This document shows, piece by piece, positions 3,284 to 50,767 of a DNA stretch of 50,767 nt. The stretch spans positions 1 to 50,767 of the forward strand of contig DAHVUT010000026.1 in the NCBI GenBank assembly GCA_027328425.1. The letters run 5' to 3'. Under the pieces are notes generated by a model. The model saw only the letters and a program-made list of their open reading frames with translations, searched no databases and had not been told where the DNA came from. Both the position numbers and the translations under genes were made by a program. Positions within the stretch are counted from its first letter, which is position 1, and every line of letters starts with the position of its first letter. This stretch comes from Candidatus Micrarchaeota archaeon. Lineage in GTDB: Archaea > Micrarchaeota > Micrarchaeia > Micrarchaeales > CABMGC01.

Positions 3284-4690
3284 ATGACGGGTTCGGAGAG
3301 CCTCATGACAGAGGCAGACTATAAGGAACGTTACGGATTCGTTACCGATGCGGAGTACGTTGAGTTCGACAAGGGCCTTTCCGAGGAAACGGTGAGGAAG
3401 ATATCGAAGCTGAAGGGTGAGCCCGAGTGGGTGCTGGAGAAGAGGCTGCTCGGCTACAGTGTATTTGAGAGCAAGCCAACGCCGAAGTGGGGCGCCGACC
3501 TGGGCGACATAGACTACAACGACATATACTACTACAACAACCCAAAAACAAAGGAGGGCACGAAGTGGGAGGATGTGCCGGAAGAGATAAAACAAACATT
3601 TGATAAGCTGGGGGTACCCGAAGCGGAGAGGAAGTTCTTTGCCGGGGCCGAGGCTCAGTTCGATTCAGGCGTTGTCTACTCACACATCAACGAGGAGCTG
3701 GAGAAGCTTGGCGTGATATTCACTGACACGGACACGGCCGTGAAGAAGCACCCTGAGCTCGTGAAGAAGTACTTCGGCACGGTCATACCGCCTACGGATA
3801 ACAAGTTCGCAGCGCTCAACTCGGCCGTATGGAGCGGCGGCAGCTTCATCTATGTGCCAAAGGGGGTCAAGGTTCCGATGCCGCTCAACGCATACTTCAG
3901 GATAAATGCAGAGCGTTCGGGTCAGTTCGAAAGGACACTTATCATCGCAGACGAGGGGGCGGAGGTGGTCTATTTGGAGGGTTGCACGGCCGCGATGTAC
4001 TCCGCCAACTCTCTGCATGCCGCTGTTGTGGAGATAGTAGTGCACAAGAATGCAAAGGTGCAGTACGTCACTATACAGAACTGGGCAAAGAACATCTACA
4101 ATCTTGTTACGCAGCGCGCATACGTCTATGAGAATGCGCACATGTCTTGGATCGATGCAAACATAGGCAGCAAGACAAACATGAAGTACCCCTCCATATA
4201 CCTGAGGGGGAGGAACTCGCAGGGCGAGATACTCTCGATAGCGCTGGCTTCCGACGGGCAGGTGCAGGATTCCGGGGGCAAGGTCTACCATATCGCACCG
4301 AACACCGCCTCGAAGATAGTATCGAAGAGCATATCCAAGGGAAGCGGGCTGACTACATTCAGAGGCCTGGTGCACATAGGCAAGGAAGCTGAGAACGCCA
4401 AGGTGAACACAACATGCAACGCGCTGCTGCTCGATGGCGACGCTAAAACAAACACTTACCCGTATGCAGACATACAGCGCAACGACGCGCTGCTGAGCCA
4501 CGAGGCTAAGGTAGGCAAGATAAGCGAGGACGACGTGTTTTACCTCATGTCCAGGGGCATACCGGAGGGCGACGCCATAGCGATGATAATATTGGGCTTC
4601 CTCAACGACCTGACCAAGGTGCTGCCGATGGAGTATTCGCTGGAGTTGAAGAGACTGATAAAACTCGACATGGCAGGTTCGGTGGGCTGA
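3284..4690 (+). CDS. sufB: Fe-S cluster assembly protein SufB
   Basis: AALNSAVWSGGSFIYVP, GQFERTLI, YLEGCTA, LHAAVVE, FYLMSRG; start ATG 3284 (alternative 3305). Confidence 0.97.
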   Translation: MTGSESLMTEADYKERYGFVTDAEYVEFDKGLSEETVRKISKLKGEPEWVLEKRLLGYSVFESKPTPKWGADLGDIDYNDIYYYNNPKTKEGTKWEDVPEEIKQTFDKLGVPEAERKFFAGAEAQFDSGVVYSHINEELEKLGVIFTDTDTAVKKHPELVKKYFGTVIPPTDNKFAALNSAVWSGGSFIYVPKGVKVPMPLNAYFRINAERSGQFERTLIIADEGAEVVYLEGCTAAMYSANSLHAAVVEIVVHKNAKVQYVTIQNWAKNIYNLVTQRAYVYENAHMSWIDANIGSKTNMKYPSIYLRGRNSQGEILSIALASDGQVQDSGGKVYHIAPNTASKIVSKSISKGSGLTTFRGLVHIGKEAENAKVNTTCNALLLDGDAKTNTYPYADIQRNDALLSHEAKVGKISEDDVFYLMSRGIPEGDAIAMIILGFLNDLTKVLPMEYSLELKRLIKLDMAGSVG

Positions 4691-47500: not shown

Positions 47501-48003
47501 GCCTTCTTGGAGTCGAACTCCTGTATGCCTGCAGCTACGTCTATGAACTCCCTGCGCTGCTTCGCGTTGGCCTCTATTATCTTGTTGATCTCACCCTGCG
47601 CTATGGTGCTCGTCTCGTCCACGTGCACCCCGTGGCTCTTCATGACCTCGAGCACCTCCTGTCGAGTCATGCGCTTGCCGTTGAGCTTGTAGAGCGTCTT
47701 GCCATCCGCACGCACCCACTTCGCCAGCTCGATGTGCGCATCGCCGTCGAGCTCGAGCTTGACTACCGCCTTAGAGTTAGAACCGCTGCCCCTGGCGGAG
47801 GCCTCTCTTATCAGGTACTGCAGCCTGTCCACGCGGAGCCTCCTGAGCGACGTCTCGCCCAGGCAGAACAGCAGCGCGTCCACTATGTTGCTCTTTCCCG
47901 AGCCGTTCGGCCCCACCACGCAGTTGAATCCTTTGTTGAAAAGCAGGTCTACGTGCTTGAACGACTTGAACCTACCTATGCTCGCGGATCGTATATGGAG
48001 CAC
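44581..48003 (-). CDS. smc: chromosome segregation protein SMC
   Basis: FKSF, GPNGSGKSN, coiled coils, hinge GRATFIPL, LGNVN, MSGGQKS, FDEIDTALD, QFIVVSH. Confidence 0.97.
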   Translation of the reverse strand: MLHIRSASIGRFKSFKHVDLLFNKGFNCVVGPNGSGKSNIVDALLFCLGETSLRRLRVDRLQYLIREASARGSGSNSKAVVKLELDGDAHIELAKWVRADGKTLYKLNGKRMTRQEVLEVMKSHGVHVDETSTIAQGEINKIIEANAKQRREFIDVAAGIQEFDSKKAEAMTELDKVAARMAAAQAMLDERLVFLNELAKEKAAAESYAQLVKRRASLQYSILVGRKKAAELASASYAKEIERIEADKAGLSAKLGELLGKTQKLEGERKELLQLLTEHSNAADSTNRKFTEIGNELSALDVRIGNWKSASKKLGEEMAAVRSELDSMQKRIEANTGSLLKHKGRLAELEAEAKKSGARAAPAREDMGKRVRELDGIVVGREKTLAAKREVAAGLQTQVTLLEAKAEAIGKELRELNDRLAGEKAQAEDAGAKAADALAAKQKLSKEAQEAGGESERLRNELGAIDSELISLKEQRAMSKPREQVVQGRLRDMFGKSNGFYGAVSELCSYDDKYAEAIEAAAGSRFNYFVVDSVDSAKGMISYLRANNLGRATFIPLRELRAEQENGVKGLQLVSDLLDYDDKFDSVFSYVFNNTYLVESIDAAKRAGIGAHRWVTPQGELIERSGILSGGSRSRPSSLGSVERRIRELEEKKGRLFSRAKEMDSSLFALRSRAAEAEMHSASYSALVNEHNSVCRGVSAKLEALKAEQASAVSESARAAEELAAAQAAITAASQELEECRKERTDAYEESMRESAELAGKGIGKAEREKLERANAEMREASVKVAELQKESDMLAASITQRNRELEAKGKLMEEADAGLGRDAKRREELLVLQKETEARMLGSSKRSKQALEKQEAISRELETLASRIAATEALAGDLGKRSSELLVKQGQGSTRLNDLTAELAAYTSADCQIVEGDPEQLEREASQAAAKVEALGNVNLKAPEAYEEKARSVREAKEKLDTLESERHAVLAMMEEIEAKKMSAFMTTFNEVNKNFSRLYNYIYPGKATLALEDHGNPLESGMVISIEDDNFVGRQRGMSGGQKSLLSMMLLFSIHMCKPSSIYLFDEIDTALDKENSKRLSQLIKQMSGNAQFIVVSHNDTLIVSADAAIGVAKSAGDSKVYGIEVTGVPSAGSVGKQ

Positions 48004-48113
48004 TCACACCACTGGTCGCAATACCATTTTGCCATCACAATATTAAAGCCTTCTGCTCGCAGACGATGGAAGCATATTTATTCTTTCCAGTGTACTGTAA
48101 CCTGATGGGGCGC

Positions 48114-49076
48114 ATGAAAACTGAAGTAAAAGCACACACACACACACACAAGCAAGCTAGCAAGCTAGCACGCCATAGCGCCTACTACCGCTCCCAGTCC
48201 GCCATGGAATACCTGATGACCTACGGCTGGGCCATACTGATCATAGCCGTTGTCCTGGGCGCCCTCTTCAGTTTGGGGGTCTTCAACGGCGCGAACTTCG
48301 CCCCGAAGGCGCCGCCCGGCGCCTGCCAGGTCTTCAGGCCAAATGGGCCAGGAACAACAAGCTTTGTAAATCTTGAAGGAGTCTGCAACGGCGAGCTGCC
48401 GGAGTATGTGGCGAGTTTTGAAACCTCGCCAGCATACGTCCTAATAGCCAATGATCCCTACCTTCCCAGCGCCCCGGCCGCAAGCAGGAGCATAATTACA
48501 TGGATTGACCCCACTACCATACCGCACAGCACCAACCCTGACATATTTGGCGGCACGGTTTTTACGATGCCCCCAATAGGCTCGCGCAATCTAGACGTGT
48601 GCGGTGCTTTCAACCTTTTAATAAGTAACTGGAACGCTCTATTCCTTCACAAATGCATCAACGACATAACGAGTGCGGTACACTCGTACGAAAATACGTG
48701 GGAATTTGTCGCTGTAGTGTACAACAACGCCTCTGACACCGTAACATTTTATATAGACAGCCAGGTAAATGTGCAAACAAACAACGGGATGTACCCAGCC
48801 AGCCAAAACTTGACAGCAGGTGGCTGGGATACTAACGCTAACACAATTACCGGCTATATTTCAAACTTTCAGGTCTACAATACCTCACTCTCCCAACCTG
48901 AGATCAATGCACTTTATACCGAAGGCATCGGCGGGGCGCCCATCGACCTGCAGAACCTTGTGGGCTGGTGGCCGCTCAACGGCAATGCAAATGACTACAG
49001 CGGCAACAACAATGACGGCACTGCCTCCAATGTCATATACACAAGCTCGTGGACCTCTGGATATAGTGCGCCTTGA
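48114..49076 (+). CDS. class III signal peptide (pilin-like) LamG/ConA-domain surface protein, in-frame copy
   Basis: RS|QSAMEYLMTYGWAILIIAVVLGAL (Glu at +5); WEFVAVVY, GYISNFQVYNTSLS..EI, LVGWWPLNG..NDYSG LamG-like motifs. Confidence 0.85.
   Translation: MKTEVKAHTHTHKQASKLARHSAYYRSQSAMEYLMTYGWAILIIAVVLGALFSLGVFNGANFAPKAPPGACQVFRPNGPGTTSFVNLEGVCNGELPEYVASFETSPAYVLIANDPYLPSAPAASRSIITWIDPTTIPHSTNPDIFGGTVFTMPPIGSRNLDVCGAFNLLISNWNALFLHKCINDITSAVHSYENTWEFVAVVYNNASDTVTFYIDSQVNVQTNNGMYPASQNLTAGGWDTNANTITGYISNFQVYNTSLSQPEINALYTEGIGGAPIDLQNLVGWWPLNGNANDYSGNNNDGTASNVIYTSSWTSGYSAP
48133..48150 (+). repeat. (CA)9 microsatellite in the signal-peptide coding region
   Basis: Read directly; followed by AGCA-AGCTAGCA-AGCTAGCA. 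Confidence 0.95.
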
Positions 49077-49185
49077 CTGCAAGTTAGATACGCCAAATAT
49101 TTATTGTATATCAAAAAGTAAAGCTTTATTGAATTATATTACTTTATATAGTAAAGCTTTTAAACTTCAATATTTATGAAGTATC

Positions 49186-50478
49186 ATGGAAACCGAAACG
49201 ATAAAAAGGATAATCCAAGACCAGGAAGCAGAAAGGAACAGAATTCTCGCCCAGTCTGATATAATAGATAGGAGCGCAGGCAGGAGGATCGCAGAGCGTG
49301 CACTTGAGCACCCCAATATGTTCATAATATTGGGGATAAGAAGGAGCGGAAAATCCACACTTGTATGGCTCTTGCTTAAAGGAAAATCCTATGCCTACAT
49401 CAACTTCGATGATGAGGCCCTCTACGGAATAAAGTCTACAGACCTAAATACTATTTTAAAGGCGTTCTATGAACTCTACGGAGAAAAGATAGAGTATATA
49501 GCTTTGGATGAAATACAAAACATAGACGGATGGGAACTGTTCGTTAACAGGTTGGCCAGGAGCAAGAAAGTTATAATAACTGGTAGCAATTCTGCGCTGT
49601 TGTCCGGTGAGCTGGCAACACACCTTACGGGCAGGCACTCGGATTTCATTCTGTTCCCCTTCAGTTTCAGGGAATATCTGGAATACAGGAAGACAGATAT
49701 TACCAGAGTAAAGCAGAAACAGTTCTCCACAGAAACTGCGTCTATGATGTCAAGAATGCTCTCTGACTATGCAAAGGTCGGCGGAATGCCAGAAGGGTAC
49801 AAATTCGGAAAGGAGAGGATAAAGACCACATTCGGAGATGTAATAACCAAAGACGTAATAAGAAGACATAATATAAGAAATGCGAAAGCCATTGAGGATC
49901 TTGCAAAGTACTTGGTTTCCAATTTCGCAAAAGAGATAACATACAGCCGCATTCGCAGTGCGGTAGGAATAAACAGGGTGGCCACAGTTAGCATGTATGT
50001 AAGCTACCTTAAAGAGGCATATCTCATCTTTGAACTTTCCCGCTTTTCTTTCAAGCTGAAGATGCAGTCCATAGCCCCGAAGAAAGTATACTGTACCGAT
50101 ACAGCATTTATAAATGCAATAGCATTCACTCTCTCTGACAATGTAGGAAGGCTGATGGAAAACATTGTTGCAACAGAGCTATTCAGACGGAAAAATTACA
50201 GTGATACCGACATGGAGGTATTCTACTGGAAGGATCATTACAATCGTGAAGTTGATTTCGTAGTTAAAAAAGGGAAACGTGTCACAGAACTCCTACAAGT
50301 GACTTATGCGGGTTCTAGAGGTGAGATAAATGAAAGGGAAAAAGAAGCGCTCATGTATGGGGCAAAAAGCCTCAGGTGCAACAACCTTGTTATAATAACC
50401 TGGGACTACGAAGGCGAGATAAGAGAATCGGGCAAAAGGATAAAGTGCATTCCTCTCTGGAAGTGGCTGCTGGGATAG
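49186..50478 (+). CDS. AAA+ ATPase (COG1373 type, AAA_14 + DUF4143)
   Basis: GIRRSGKS, YINFDD, LDEIQ, TGSNS, LTGR, PFSFREY, GGMP, KKVY..D, EN, EVDFV; AT-rich. Confidence 0.9.
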   Translation: METETIKRIIQDQEAERNRILAQSDIIDRSAGRRIAERALEHPNMFIILGIRRSGKSTLVWLLLKGKSYAYINFDDEALYGIKSTDLNTILKAFYELYGEKIEYIALDEIQNIDGWELFVNRLARSKKVIITGSNSALLSGELATHLTGRHSDFILFPFSFREYLEYRKTDITRVKQKQFSTETASMMSRMLSDYAKVGGMPEGYKFGKERIKTTFGDVITKDVIRRHNIRNAKAIEDLAKYLVSNFAKEITYSRIRSAVGINRVATVSMYVSYLKEAYLIFELSRFSFKLKMQSIAPKKVYCTDTAFINAIAFTLSDNVGRLMENIVATELFRRKNYSDTDMEVFYWKDHYNREVDFVVKKGKRVTELLQVTYAGSRGEINEREKEALMYGAKSLRCNNLVIITWDYEGEIRESGKRIKCIPLWKWLLG

Positions 50479-50528
50479 CAATGCGAGGCTATTTATGTTT
50501 TTCTTGGCAGTTTAGCAGTGTGGGCTGC

Positions 50529-50767
50529 ATGGAAGCGGAAAAGTTAACACACACACACACACACACACACAAGCTAGCAAGCTAGCGCGCCATAGCGCCT
50601 ACTGCCGCTCCCAGTCTGCAATGGAGTACCTGATGACCTACGGCTGGGCCATACTGATTATAGCCGTTGTCCTGGGCGCCCTCTTCAGTTTGGGAGTCTT
50701 CAACAGCGCAAACTTCGCCCCGAAGGCGCCGCCGGGCGCCTGCCAGGTCTTCAGGCCGAACGGGCCA
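50529..50767 (+). pseudogene. second pilin-like paralog, frameshifted within a (CA)12 tract (candidate phase-OFF allele); runs off the window
   Basis: ATG 50529 reads MEAEKLTHTHTHTHKLAS* (TAG 50583-85); the pilin frame (ATG 50621) is 92 nt downstream; 50570-50767 matches 48153-48350 with 12 mismatches in 198 nt. Confidence 0.8.
50548..50571 (+). repeat. (CA)12 microsatellite in the signal-peptide coding region
   Basis: Read directly; followed by AGCTAGCA-AGCTAGCG. Confidence 0.95.

Follow-up and report, generated by a model that had tools for sequence, protein, structure and literature searches.

Two pilin-like genes at the end of a Micrarchaeota contig

The window analysed here is the entire contig C27 (DAHVUT010000026.1; 50,767 nt) of a 27-contig, 542,088-bp Micrarchaeota (DPANN) genome with an estimated completeness of 72%. 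Near its 3′ end it carries, on the forward strand, two paralogous genes, copy 1 and copy 2, which would encode pilin-like proteins and which have a pure CA tract shortly behind the start codon. In copy 1, the ATG at 48114 begins a 320-codon frame comprising a leader with (CA)9, the residues R-S|Q-S-A-M-E-Y (the bar marks the predicted cleavage site), a hydrophobic stretch and a Laminin_G_3 domain. The leader (48114..48194), corresponding to the n-region of a class III signal peptide, has 27 residues, the last two being R-S, and the tract (48133..48150) is read in frame as His/Thr repeats, the state that we call ON. The frame continues unbroken through ...YYRS|QSAMEY to the stop codon at 49074-49076. 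The mature pilin-like protein (48195..49076, from the +1 Gln to the stop codon) contains, besides the +1 Gln and a Glu at +5, a hydrophobic helix, a linker modelled with low confidence and a beta jelly-roll of the LamG/concanavalin A-like (ConA-like) type.

In copy 2, the ATG at 50529 leads through a (CA)12 tract (50548..50571) to a premature TAG at 50583-50585, and this short frame (50529..50585) represents the OFF state. The frame that enters the pilin body, hereafter the productive frame, is open from the +1 Gln onward (50612..50767), up to the contig end at 50767 by which copy 2 is cut off. Frame analysis showed that the loss of one CA unit or the gain of two, giving 11 or 14 units, would create an unbroken frame from the ATG into QSAMEY. 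The productive frame has its upstream stop codon at 50513-50515, after which no ATG, GTG or TTG is found until the ATG of MEY at 50621. Over the 198 nt common to the two copies there are 12 differences, 10 synonymous and two non-synonymous. These coordinates, frames and substitution counts were the basis of an original prediction made from the DNA alone, in which slipped-strand changes in CA number were proposed to switch pilin-like adhesin genes of a DPANN-type archaeon, and all of them were recovered in our analysis.

Both genes are preceded by a TATA-like box, the putative promoter. The box of copy 1 (ATATTTATT, 48074..48082) starts 28 nt before the first ATG (48105) and has its centre 36 nt from the ATG at 48114; the true start of copy 1 may be the in-frame ATG at 48105, where the database protein P0001 begins. 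The centre of the copy 2 box (TATTTAT, 50491..50497) lies 35 nt ahead of its ATG. Immediately 3′ of (CA)9, and still within the leader, an 8-nt unit (AGCAAGCT) occurs twice (48151..48166), and it is doubled right behind the CA tract at 50571-50586 and at C3:222-237 as well. An Rfam scan of 47800-50767 gave a noise match only (rivX, 18 bits against a gathering score of 100).

The copy 1 product matched the Pfam model PF13385 Laminin_G_3 (E-value 1.4e-10, 41.9 bits against a cut-off of 27.6), the only other match at an E-value of at most 0.1 being a sub-threshold one to AFP_2. In an AlphaFold model built with 26 sequences (mean predicted local distance difference test [pLDDT] score 75.8), a disordered leader is followed by a helix at residues 33-56, right after the cleavage site, then by a low-confidence linker and a beta jelly-roll domain with a pLDDT of about 90. 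The best Foldseek matches were pentraxin and other LamG/ConA-like binding domains (E-value about 5e-10, target template-modelling score about 0.6). Profile and modelled fold together would place the protein in the LamG/concanavalin A-like lectin superfamily; the jelly-roll as modelled is a generic ligand-binding fold and says nothing on specificity. Matches to the family were present in all 61 related genomes, with up to 53 per genome, and the protein database yielded 3,480 matches, for which the most specific annotation was 'LamG-like jellyroll fold domain-containing protein' of Micrarchaeaceae.

The aligned homologues (26 of 26) share QSAME and the YLMTYGWAILIIAVVLGALF behind it without variation; in this alignment, a variable core separates a conserved N-terminal part (about 31-101) from a conserved C-terminal one (about 250-320). 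R-S precedes the Gln in copies 1 and 2 and in the paralogs on contigs C3 and C10, while relatives have mostly K/R followed by S/A, some with L, N or C at −1. As far as the accessible text of the source goes, substrates of archaeal prepilin peptidase of the EppA type have a charged residue at −2, G/A/S at −1, Gln at +1 and Glu at +5 before the hydrophobic domain (PMC4371748), and the proteins studied here resemble the EppA-type pilins of Methanococcus maripaludis in the charged −2, the small −1, the +1 Gln and the +5 Glu. They differ from M. maripaludis pilins in having leaders of about 20-60 residues with a repeat and a mature protein of about 290 aa with a LamG domain, and are thus unlike a small structural pilin. 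Judged by cleavage site and helix, they are predicted archaeal type IV pilin-like proteins. The genome encodes a prepilin peptidase (Peptidase_A24, C2:34906-35190, 36.1 bits, above the cut-off) and a pilus-type T2SSE ATPase (C12:8724-9311, 73.8 bits), by which the pilin-like proteins may be processed and incorporated into a pilus. Some leaders (L058 in G033:C36, L078 in G033:C76, and those of the database proteins P0029 and P0024) have a second, degenerate cleavage motif upstream of the first (...KSQSAMEYRNF...KS|QSAMEY); these leaders seem to have gained a duplicate of part of the signal peptide.

Distribution and reading frame of the repeat tracts

Seven dinucleotide runs of at least five units are present in this genome. 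The longest four, of 8, 9, 12 and 14 units, are all CA/AC and correspond to C3:202-217, the two C27 copies and C10:3438-3465, each located 18-19 nt past the leader ATG of a LamG-domain pilin paralog. The genome-wide comparison called for by the original prediction thus found dinucleotide tracts of at least eight units only in pilin leaders (four of four). Copy 1 and the C10 gene are in frame; copy 2 and the C3 gene are out of frame. The sole homopolymer of at least 8 nt in the genome is one T8, and the other repeats above the listing thresholds are scattered two-copy 8-mers and one pentamer in three copies. Seventeen genes of the genome have this pilin N-terminus, and those lacking a repeat tract have ordinary, mostly short leaders. 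When the search for paralogs, with tract length set against frame, was extended beyond the four loci found here, the loci numbered about 40, from at least 10 Micrarchaeota genomes.

Other collections were searched with a degenerate pattern made up of (AC)6 and, after a gap of 40-100 nt, the codons for MEYLMTYG; shuffles of the window gave 0.00 expected occurrences of tract plus pilin N-terminus. The pattern matched 23 stretches in 8 bins of species-representative genomes and 4 metagenome contigs carrying 5 loci. All 23 stretches are titled 'Candidatus Micrarchaeota archaeon', which bears out the assignment to a DPANN-type archaeon. Among viral contigs there were no matches to the tract-plus-anchor pattern.

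Tracts were then counted irrespective of context in 61 related genomes (the tallies take in the unpublished G050, which contributed no tract). Thirty (AC) tracts of at least six units were found in seven of the genomes (G000, 4; G004, 3; G005, 1; G016, 3; G033, 5; G048, 4; G052, 10), and 30 of 30 were in a pilin-leader context: 27 run directly into a QSAMEY N-terminus on the same strand, and the other three, which hit contig ends, were placed by leader homology to complete loci. In the closed single-contig genome G004, three of three lie in pilin leaders. Seven of the eight AG/CT tracts of at least seven units are also in pilin leaders, one of the seven being (CT)9 on the coding strand. The lone long AG/CT tract outside pilin leaders, L069 (G017:C39:5802-5819), is a (CT)9 close to the 3′ end of an unrelated frame; no pilin N-terminus is located less than 3 kb away. 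The three (AT) tracts of at least seven units are not in leaders, four (AG)6 runs are background likewise, and no (CG) tract of at least seven units was found. In all, 35 of the 39 tracts of at least seven units occupy the leader position. The tracts are pure, long for the genome and over-represented at one class of locus, as is expected of contingency loci.

Three repeat units are found at the leader position, (CA)n encoding Thr-His, (AG)n encoding Arg-Glu and (CT)n encoding Leu-Ser, and they recur across leader families and also in two separate taxonomic families. The use of different units at one position points to mutability rather than to a particular peptide. A function of the (Thr-His)n peptide itself, such as metal binding, was rejected, since (AG)n and (CT)n take the same position. 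In the oriented AC loci, the coding strand always carries AC/CA and never GT.

We examined frame and start codons at 35 loci with a tract no more than 130 nt from the +1 Gln. The stretch from the tract to the Gln is free of stop codons in the productive frame at 35 of 35 loci, compared with 4 of 35 and 0 of 35 in the other two frames. An ATG, GTG or TTG in the productive frame behind the tract is missing at 24 of the 35, and there the tract must therefore be translated. Moreover, the charged −2, small −1, +1 Gln and +5 Glu are preserved with synonymous variation; this conservation of the cleavage-site residues argues that translation starts upstream of the cleavage site, and in most cases the only available start is upstream of the tract. 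Among the 30 loci bearing a TATA-like motif in an admittedly crude motif search, the first ATG is located 19-38 nt past the start of the motif in 26, mostly at 27-28 nt. This spacing from a putative promoter fits a leaderless or near-leaderless mRNA; no RNA sequencing run was found that holds the window stretch. A start at the internal ATG of MEY, which the original prediction had named among the outcomes that would contradict it, appears unlikely given the conserved −2, −1 and +1 residues, while leaky re-initiation at this ATG may contribute at some level.

Frame states, intact OFF genes and population variants

When the ATGs whose frame enters the tract were used to call the state of the 35 loci, 17 were ON and 16 OFF, with L039 lacking an ATG and L062 lacking its 5′ side. 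The addition or removal of one unit brings 16 of 16 OFF loci back in frame. The AG group comprises one ON locus, five OFF loci and one ambiguous locus. In a leader family of G052 with near-identical flanks, genes with 9, 9 and 15 units are ON and those with 8 and 8 units are OFF, and three paralogs in G048 (12, 13 and 15 units) are without exception OFF, the in-frame numbers for them being 11, 14 or 17. The C10 gene (14 units) and its G004 orthologue (11 units) are three units apart and both ON, while copy 1 with 9 units is ON and its G004 orthologue L035 with 11 units is OFF. Tract length thus varies between orthologues and between paralogs with conserved flanks, with one counter-example (L046 and L054, see below), and the in-frame placement near the 5′ end is such that unit number would set expression. 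Tract purity differs between L043 (G005:C5), a pure (AC)8 that is OFF, and the related leader L005 (G007:C22), which has an interrupted, degenerate CA-rich stretch in frame; a tract locked ON by point mutations would look like the latter. As to the position downstream of smc, where copy 1 lies, a pilin gene was found only in G000 and G004 among 13 genomes of the genus including G000.

The original prediction had also suggested that copy 2 is under selection rather than dead. Fourteen of the 15 OFF loci with complete sequence hold an open mature frame of 269-313 aa, comparable with the 274-294 aa at ON loci. As an open frame of about 290 codons does not persist by chance, the OFF alleles are either very recent or return to use repeatedly. 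The ratio of non-synonymous to synonymous substitution rates (dN/dS), determined over 28 full-length genes bearing simple sequence repeats (SSRs), is 0.31-0.43 for the few usable pairs that involve OFF genes, with dS near saturation; paralogs are mostly saturated and only four pairs have a dS below 1.

OFF states would also account for irregular gene calls in the database. The homologues P0005, P0008, P0010, P0014, P0017 and P0023 are called from the internal Met (MEYLMTYGW), and these calls probably stem from out-of-frame or start-less leaders. P0124, the product of the C10 gene, which is ON, clusters at 90% identity or more with P0010 of another assembly, and P0010 is called only from the internal Met, as expected for an out-of-frame leader there.

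Sequence variants were also detected within the population from which the genome was assembled. C3:1-140 is identical to C27:47932-48071, which holds the 5′ end of smc and intergenic DNA. Beyond C3:140 there are a few substitutions and a net gain of 2 nt relative to copy 1 at the junction of tract and 8-nt repeat, the C3 gene having 8 units and being OFF. With an identical flank and a diverged tract, C3 therefore represents an alternative haplotype of the copy 1 locus in the same bin; its first 490 nt, aligned with window positions 47932-48420, go over into a mosaic pilin gene. In run X1, contig depth is 11.8 over the copy 1 core (48385-48953) compared with 284-414 in the flanking smc and ATPase DNA, and a contig of depth 308 links 48414 to 48927 with a different sequence between. 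The low depth of the core together with this replacement contig indicates that the LamG core of copy 1 is a minor population variant in the bin, and the core looks exchangeable between conserved flanks. A chimeric leader was observed in P0012, encoded by a 1523-nt contig of the European Nucleotide Archive (ENA): it combines the copy 1-family start MGRMKTEVK and a short His/Thr tract with the post-tract part of the C10 family, a hint of recombination between leader modules at the tract or close to it.

Between the two pilin copies lies an AAA_14/DUF4143 ATPase gene (49186..50478), identified by a profile match. The same gene type, ending in ...PLWKWLLG* or similarly (...PLW.W/RLLG*), was seen directly upstream of SSR-bearing pilin genes elsewhere, at C10 (about 3340-3370), L049, L031 and L059. 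This recurrence at unrelated loci and genomes suggests that ATPase and pilin form a duplicated two-gene module.

Contingency loci and alternative explanations

Taken together, the results make it likely, in our view, that the tracts are simple-sequence contingency loci controlling lectin-type pilins in Micrarchaeota. Each gene would encode a modular type IV pilin-like protein in which a class III signal peptide precedes a hydrophobic helix and a LamG/lectin-type domain. A TATA-type promoter would give rise to a leaderless or near-leaderless mRNA translated from its first AUG, with the pure dinucleotide tract 3-69 nt past this AUG, inside a poorly constrained leader that is later cleaved off. 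Slipped-strand mispairing during replication would add or remove units, at a rate and with a reversibility within the population that we infer. No MutS_V or NucS_C domain was found in G000, G004, G016, G033, G048 or G052 (bins 72-93% complete, three of them 93%), a result consistent with the absence of known mismatch-repair routes, absence from incomplete bins being no proof; with neither MutS nor NucS in sight, slips would go uncorrected. A change by one unit shifts the frame, so that the ribosome either reads through [K/R]-[S/A]|QSAME into the pilin body (ON) or terminates within some 10-25 codons (OFF), and changes by three units would merely lengthen the discarded leader. Since several paralogs each have their own tract, a population could display different combinations of lectin-type pilins, the ligands of which are probably glycans on the host-cell surface. 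Of the interpretation given in the original prediction, the architecture found strong support, with tract length setting the frame of a translated leader, whereas stochastic switching and a part in host attachment or as virus receptor stay conjectural; such a role may be surmised from the LamG/lectin fold, the pilin-type N-terminus and published speculation on the family (PMC5498576).

Several observations weigh against the contingency-locus interpretation. The (AC)n tracts are patchy, being present in only 7 of the 61 relatives, and the locus counts are not independent because paralogs share ancestry. The ON share, 17 of 39 assessable loci (22 OFF, L039 included), is by a normal approximation not clearly different from the one third expected of random frames, and it thus carries no weight either way. 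L046 and L054, with a dS of about 0.11, both have exactly nine units, and hence the tracts are not wildly unstable, or else the ON length is selected. The mature frame of the OFF orthologue L035 (G004:C1, about 739,700-741,700, downstream of smc) ends after 150 residues, and either a genuine pseudogene or a second frameshift may lie behind this. At 11 of the 35 loci there is a possible post-tract start in the productive frame, including one ATG (L056, M-K-L|Q) and two TTG codons at −3 (L036, L037); in a minority, therefore, the tract could be 5′ untranslated region (UTR). No Pfam or NCBIfam model matches the signal peptide, a weak negative in view of how weakly short N-terminal motifs are modelled. 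Finally, 8 DNA runs from 3 studies hold the stretch as Logan contigs, and in the 4 runs compared, for which the repeats at 48122-48174 and 50539-50587 were left out, no piece bridged a tract, a result neutral on length heterogeneity.

Some of these observations would be accommodated if the tracts were tolerated mutational hot spots in the unconstrained leader of a redundant family, with OFF copies that were recently inactivated and are heading for loss. An ON share close to random, the shortened L035, the restriction of (AC)n to 7 of 61 genomes and the high redundancy of the family (up to 53 matches per genome) all speak for such a process. We nevertheless regard it as unlikely: full-length frames persist in 14 of 15 complete OFF genes, the dN/dS values involving OFF copies are 0.31-0.43, albeit with dS near saturation, and no comparable AC or AG tract occurs in other unconstrained DNA, 30 of 30 and 7 of 8, respectively, being in leaders. 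Also against it is the recurrence of three unit types at the same position, across leader families and in two taxonomic families.

The (CA)n tract could also act mainly as a translational enhancer, an unstructured A/C-rich element that follows the AUG and aids ribosome loading on a leaderless mRNA, changes of frame being a side effect. Martin-Farmer and Janssen (1999), cited by a review on this point, reportedly observed enhancement by CA repeats. Such an element would suit the predicted leaderless mRNAs, the short distance (28 nt or less) from an ATG to the tract at about half of the 35 loci, and the exclusive presence of AC/CA on the coding strand, but it does not suit the (AG)n and (CT)n tracts at the same position in other paralogs or the tracts 33-61 nt past the ATG in several families, and it leaves unexplained the half of the loci that are intact although out of frame. 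As a full explanation we therefore hold it to be very unlikely. In E. coli, CA repeats near or downstream of the start codon strongly enhance translation of both leadered and leaderless mRNA, according to the part of the review available (PMC9031893), and enhancement is compatible with contingency loci; it may be a complementary role, or a minor rival, and it may explain the CA-only coding strand.

Alternatively, translation might normally begin past the tract, either from a non-canonical codon or from the Met in QSAMEY, in which case the tract would be 5′ UTR, its frame irrelevant, and its length might tune transcription or mRNA stability. This is highly improbable, given that 24 of the 35 loci have no suitable start, that stop codons are absent from the productive frame, from the tract onward, in 35 of 35 loci as opposed to 4 and 0 of 35 for the other frames, and that the amino acids at −2, −1 and +1 are conserved; starting at MEY would, moreover, drop the cleavage site and the +1 Gln that EppA-type enzymes need, to go by the accessible text of PMC4371748. 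The post-tract starts at 11 of 35 loci and the six database proteins that gene callers begin at MEYLMTYGW are the observations that such a start would explain.

Out-of-frame lengths might, lastly, be assembly or consensus errors in low-coverage metagenome bins. Several source contigs have only 1-4x coverage by their record names, and contigs break at or beside the longest tracts (L059-L062), but the idea is hardly credible, as the layout was found again in independent assemblies of several studies, among them a 771-kb genome in one contig (about 9.5x) with one ON and two OFF loci, the OFF loci span many lengths, and errors would create neither the tracts nor their position. Transcriptional slippage or programmed frameshifting on the tract was rejected, with nothing here in its support, and we know of no precedent for either on dinucleotide repeats.

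Phase variation by SSRs is a textbook strategy of host-adapted bacteria. In Neisseria, the opa genes have pentamer repeats in the leader-peptide coding region, and pilC, which encodes a pilus-associated adhesin, has a G tract in the signal-peptide region. The Micrarchaeota genes resemble opa and pilC in being multi-copy candidate adhesins with their own coding-region repeat at each locus, an arrangement in which each gene switches independently in Neisseria, and differ from them in repeat units, domain of life and protein folds. Eleven opa genes are described as phase-variable in the part of the review available (PMC11868660). The closest documented mechanistic case would be oipA of Helicobacter pylori, in which, according to the accessible text, CT dinucleotide repeats in the signal-peptide coding region set the ON or OFF state by slipped-strand mispairing (PMC10564699). 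As in oipA and the Hop adhesins, a dinucleotide tract lies in the signal-peptide coding region of a paralogous surface family, and unit number sets the frame. The oipA gene is bacterial, with a Sec type I signal peptide, an outer-membrane product and a CT unit, whereas the loci described here are archaeal, with mostly CA tracts in the n-region of a class III (prepilin) signal peptide, and their switching is read from sequence layout alone.

Modular pilins are known from Streptococcus sanguinis, where PilB and the glycan-binding PilA-PilC complex combine a pilin N-terminus with a binding module, as described in the accessible parts of two papers (PMC8179133, PMC9934059). The fusion of a pilin-type N-terminus to a module, which in S. 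sanguinis gives the pilus its adhesive specificity, is shared with the proteins studied here. The S. sanguinis pilins are bacterial and have other modules in place of the LamG/pentraxin-type jelly-rolls, and no repeat-tract control is described for them in those parts (PMC8179133, PMC9934059). Within the Micrarchaeota, the cultured 'Ca. Mancarchaeum acidiphilum' Mia14 likewise has an expanded jelly-roll LamG-like family, some members of which are linked to type IV pili loci and genomic islands and for which a role in host interaction was proposed; the available portion of that account makes no mention of repeats, phase variation or a class III signal peptide in the LamG-like proteins (PMC5498576). 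A literature search, which did not cover supplementary files, found no paper on repeat-mediated phase variation in DPANN or of archaeal pilins; the mentions of 'phase variation' that were inspected concerned other matters or stood in reference lists. A 2025 review, as far as its text was available, places the archaeal distribution of SSR phase variation under future work (PMC11868660), and one 2025 preprint, likewise available in part, refers to contingency loci as having been studied in archaea, its visible references 13 and 14 not being archaeal. Most likely, the tracts represent an established type of switch, in a domain of life, a signal-peptide class and a gene family that are all new to it.

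We can further envisage that Micrarchaeota, and perhaps other DPANN episymbionts, possess a multi-locus contingency system of independently toggled lectin-type pilins that creates combinatorial surfaces for host attachment or virus evasion, in which tract and conserved flanks double as recombination joints, so that promoters, leaders and hypervariable LamG cores are shuffled, and which would be the first such system documented in Archaea. For this broader proposal we find the case evenly balanced. Hints at the recombination joints come from the chimeric leader of P0012 and from the core at 48414-48927 that is replaced in population contigs.

DPANN archaea need to be in physical contact with a host cell, and the way in which they select, keep and replace their host is an open question. 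With OFF alleles truncated to the internal Met or missed by gene callers, and with assemblers breaking at the tracts, this pilin family would be systematically mis-annotated. The tracts would provide a switch that can be read from sequence on an expanded family of lectin-type pilins, and metagenome reads could show which adhesins are ON in each population. If the contingency-locus interpretation is true, localised hypermutation has evolved independently in an archaeal lineage that apparently lacks mismatch repair.

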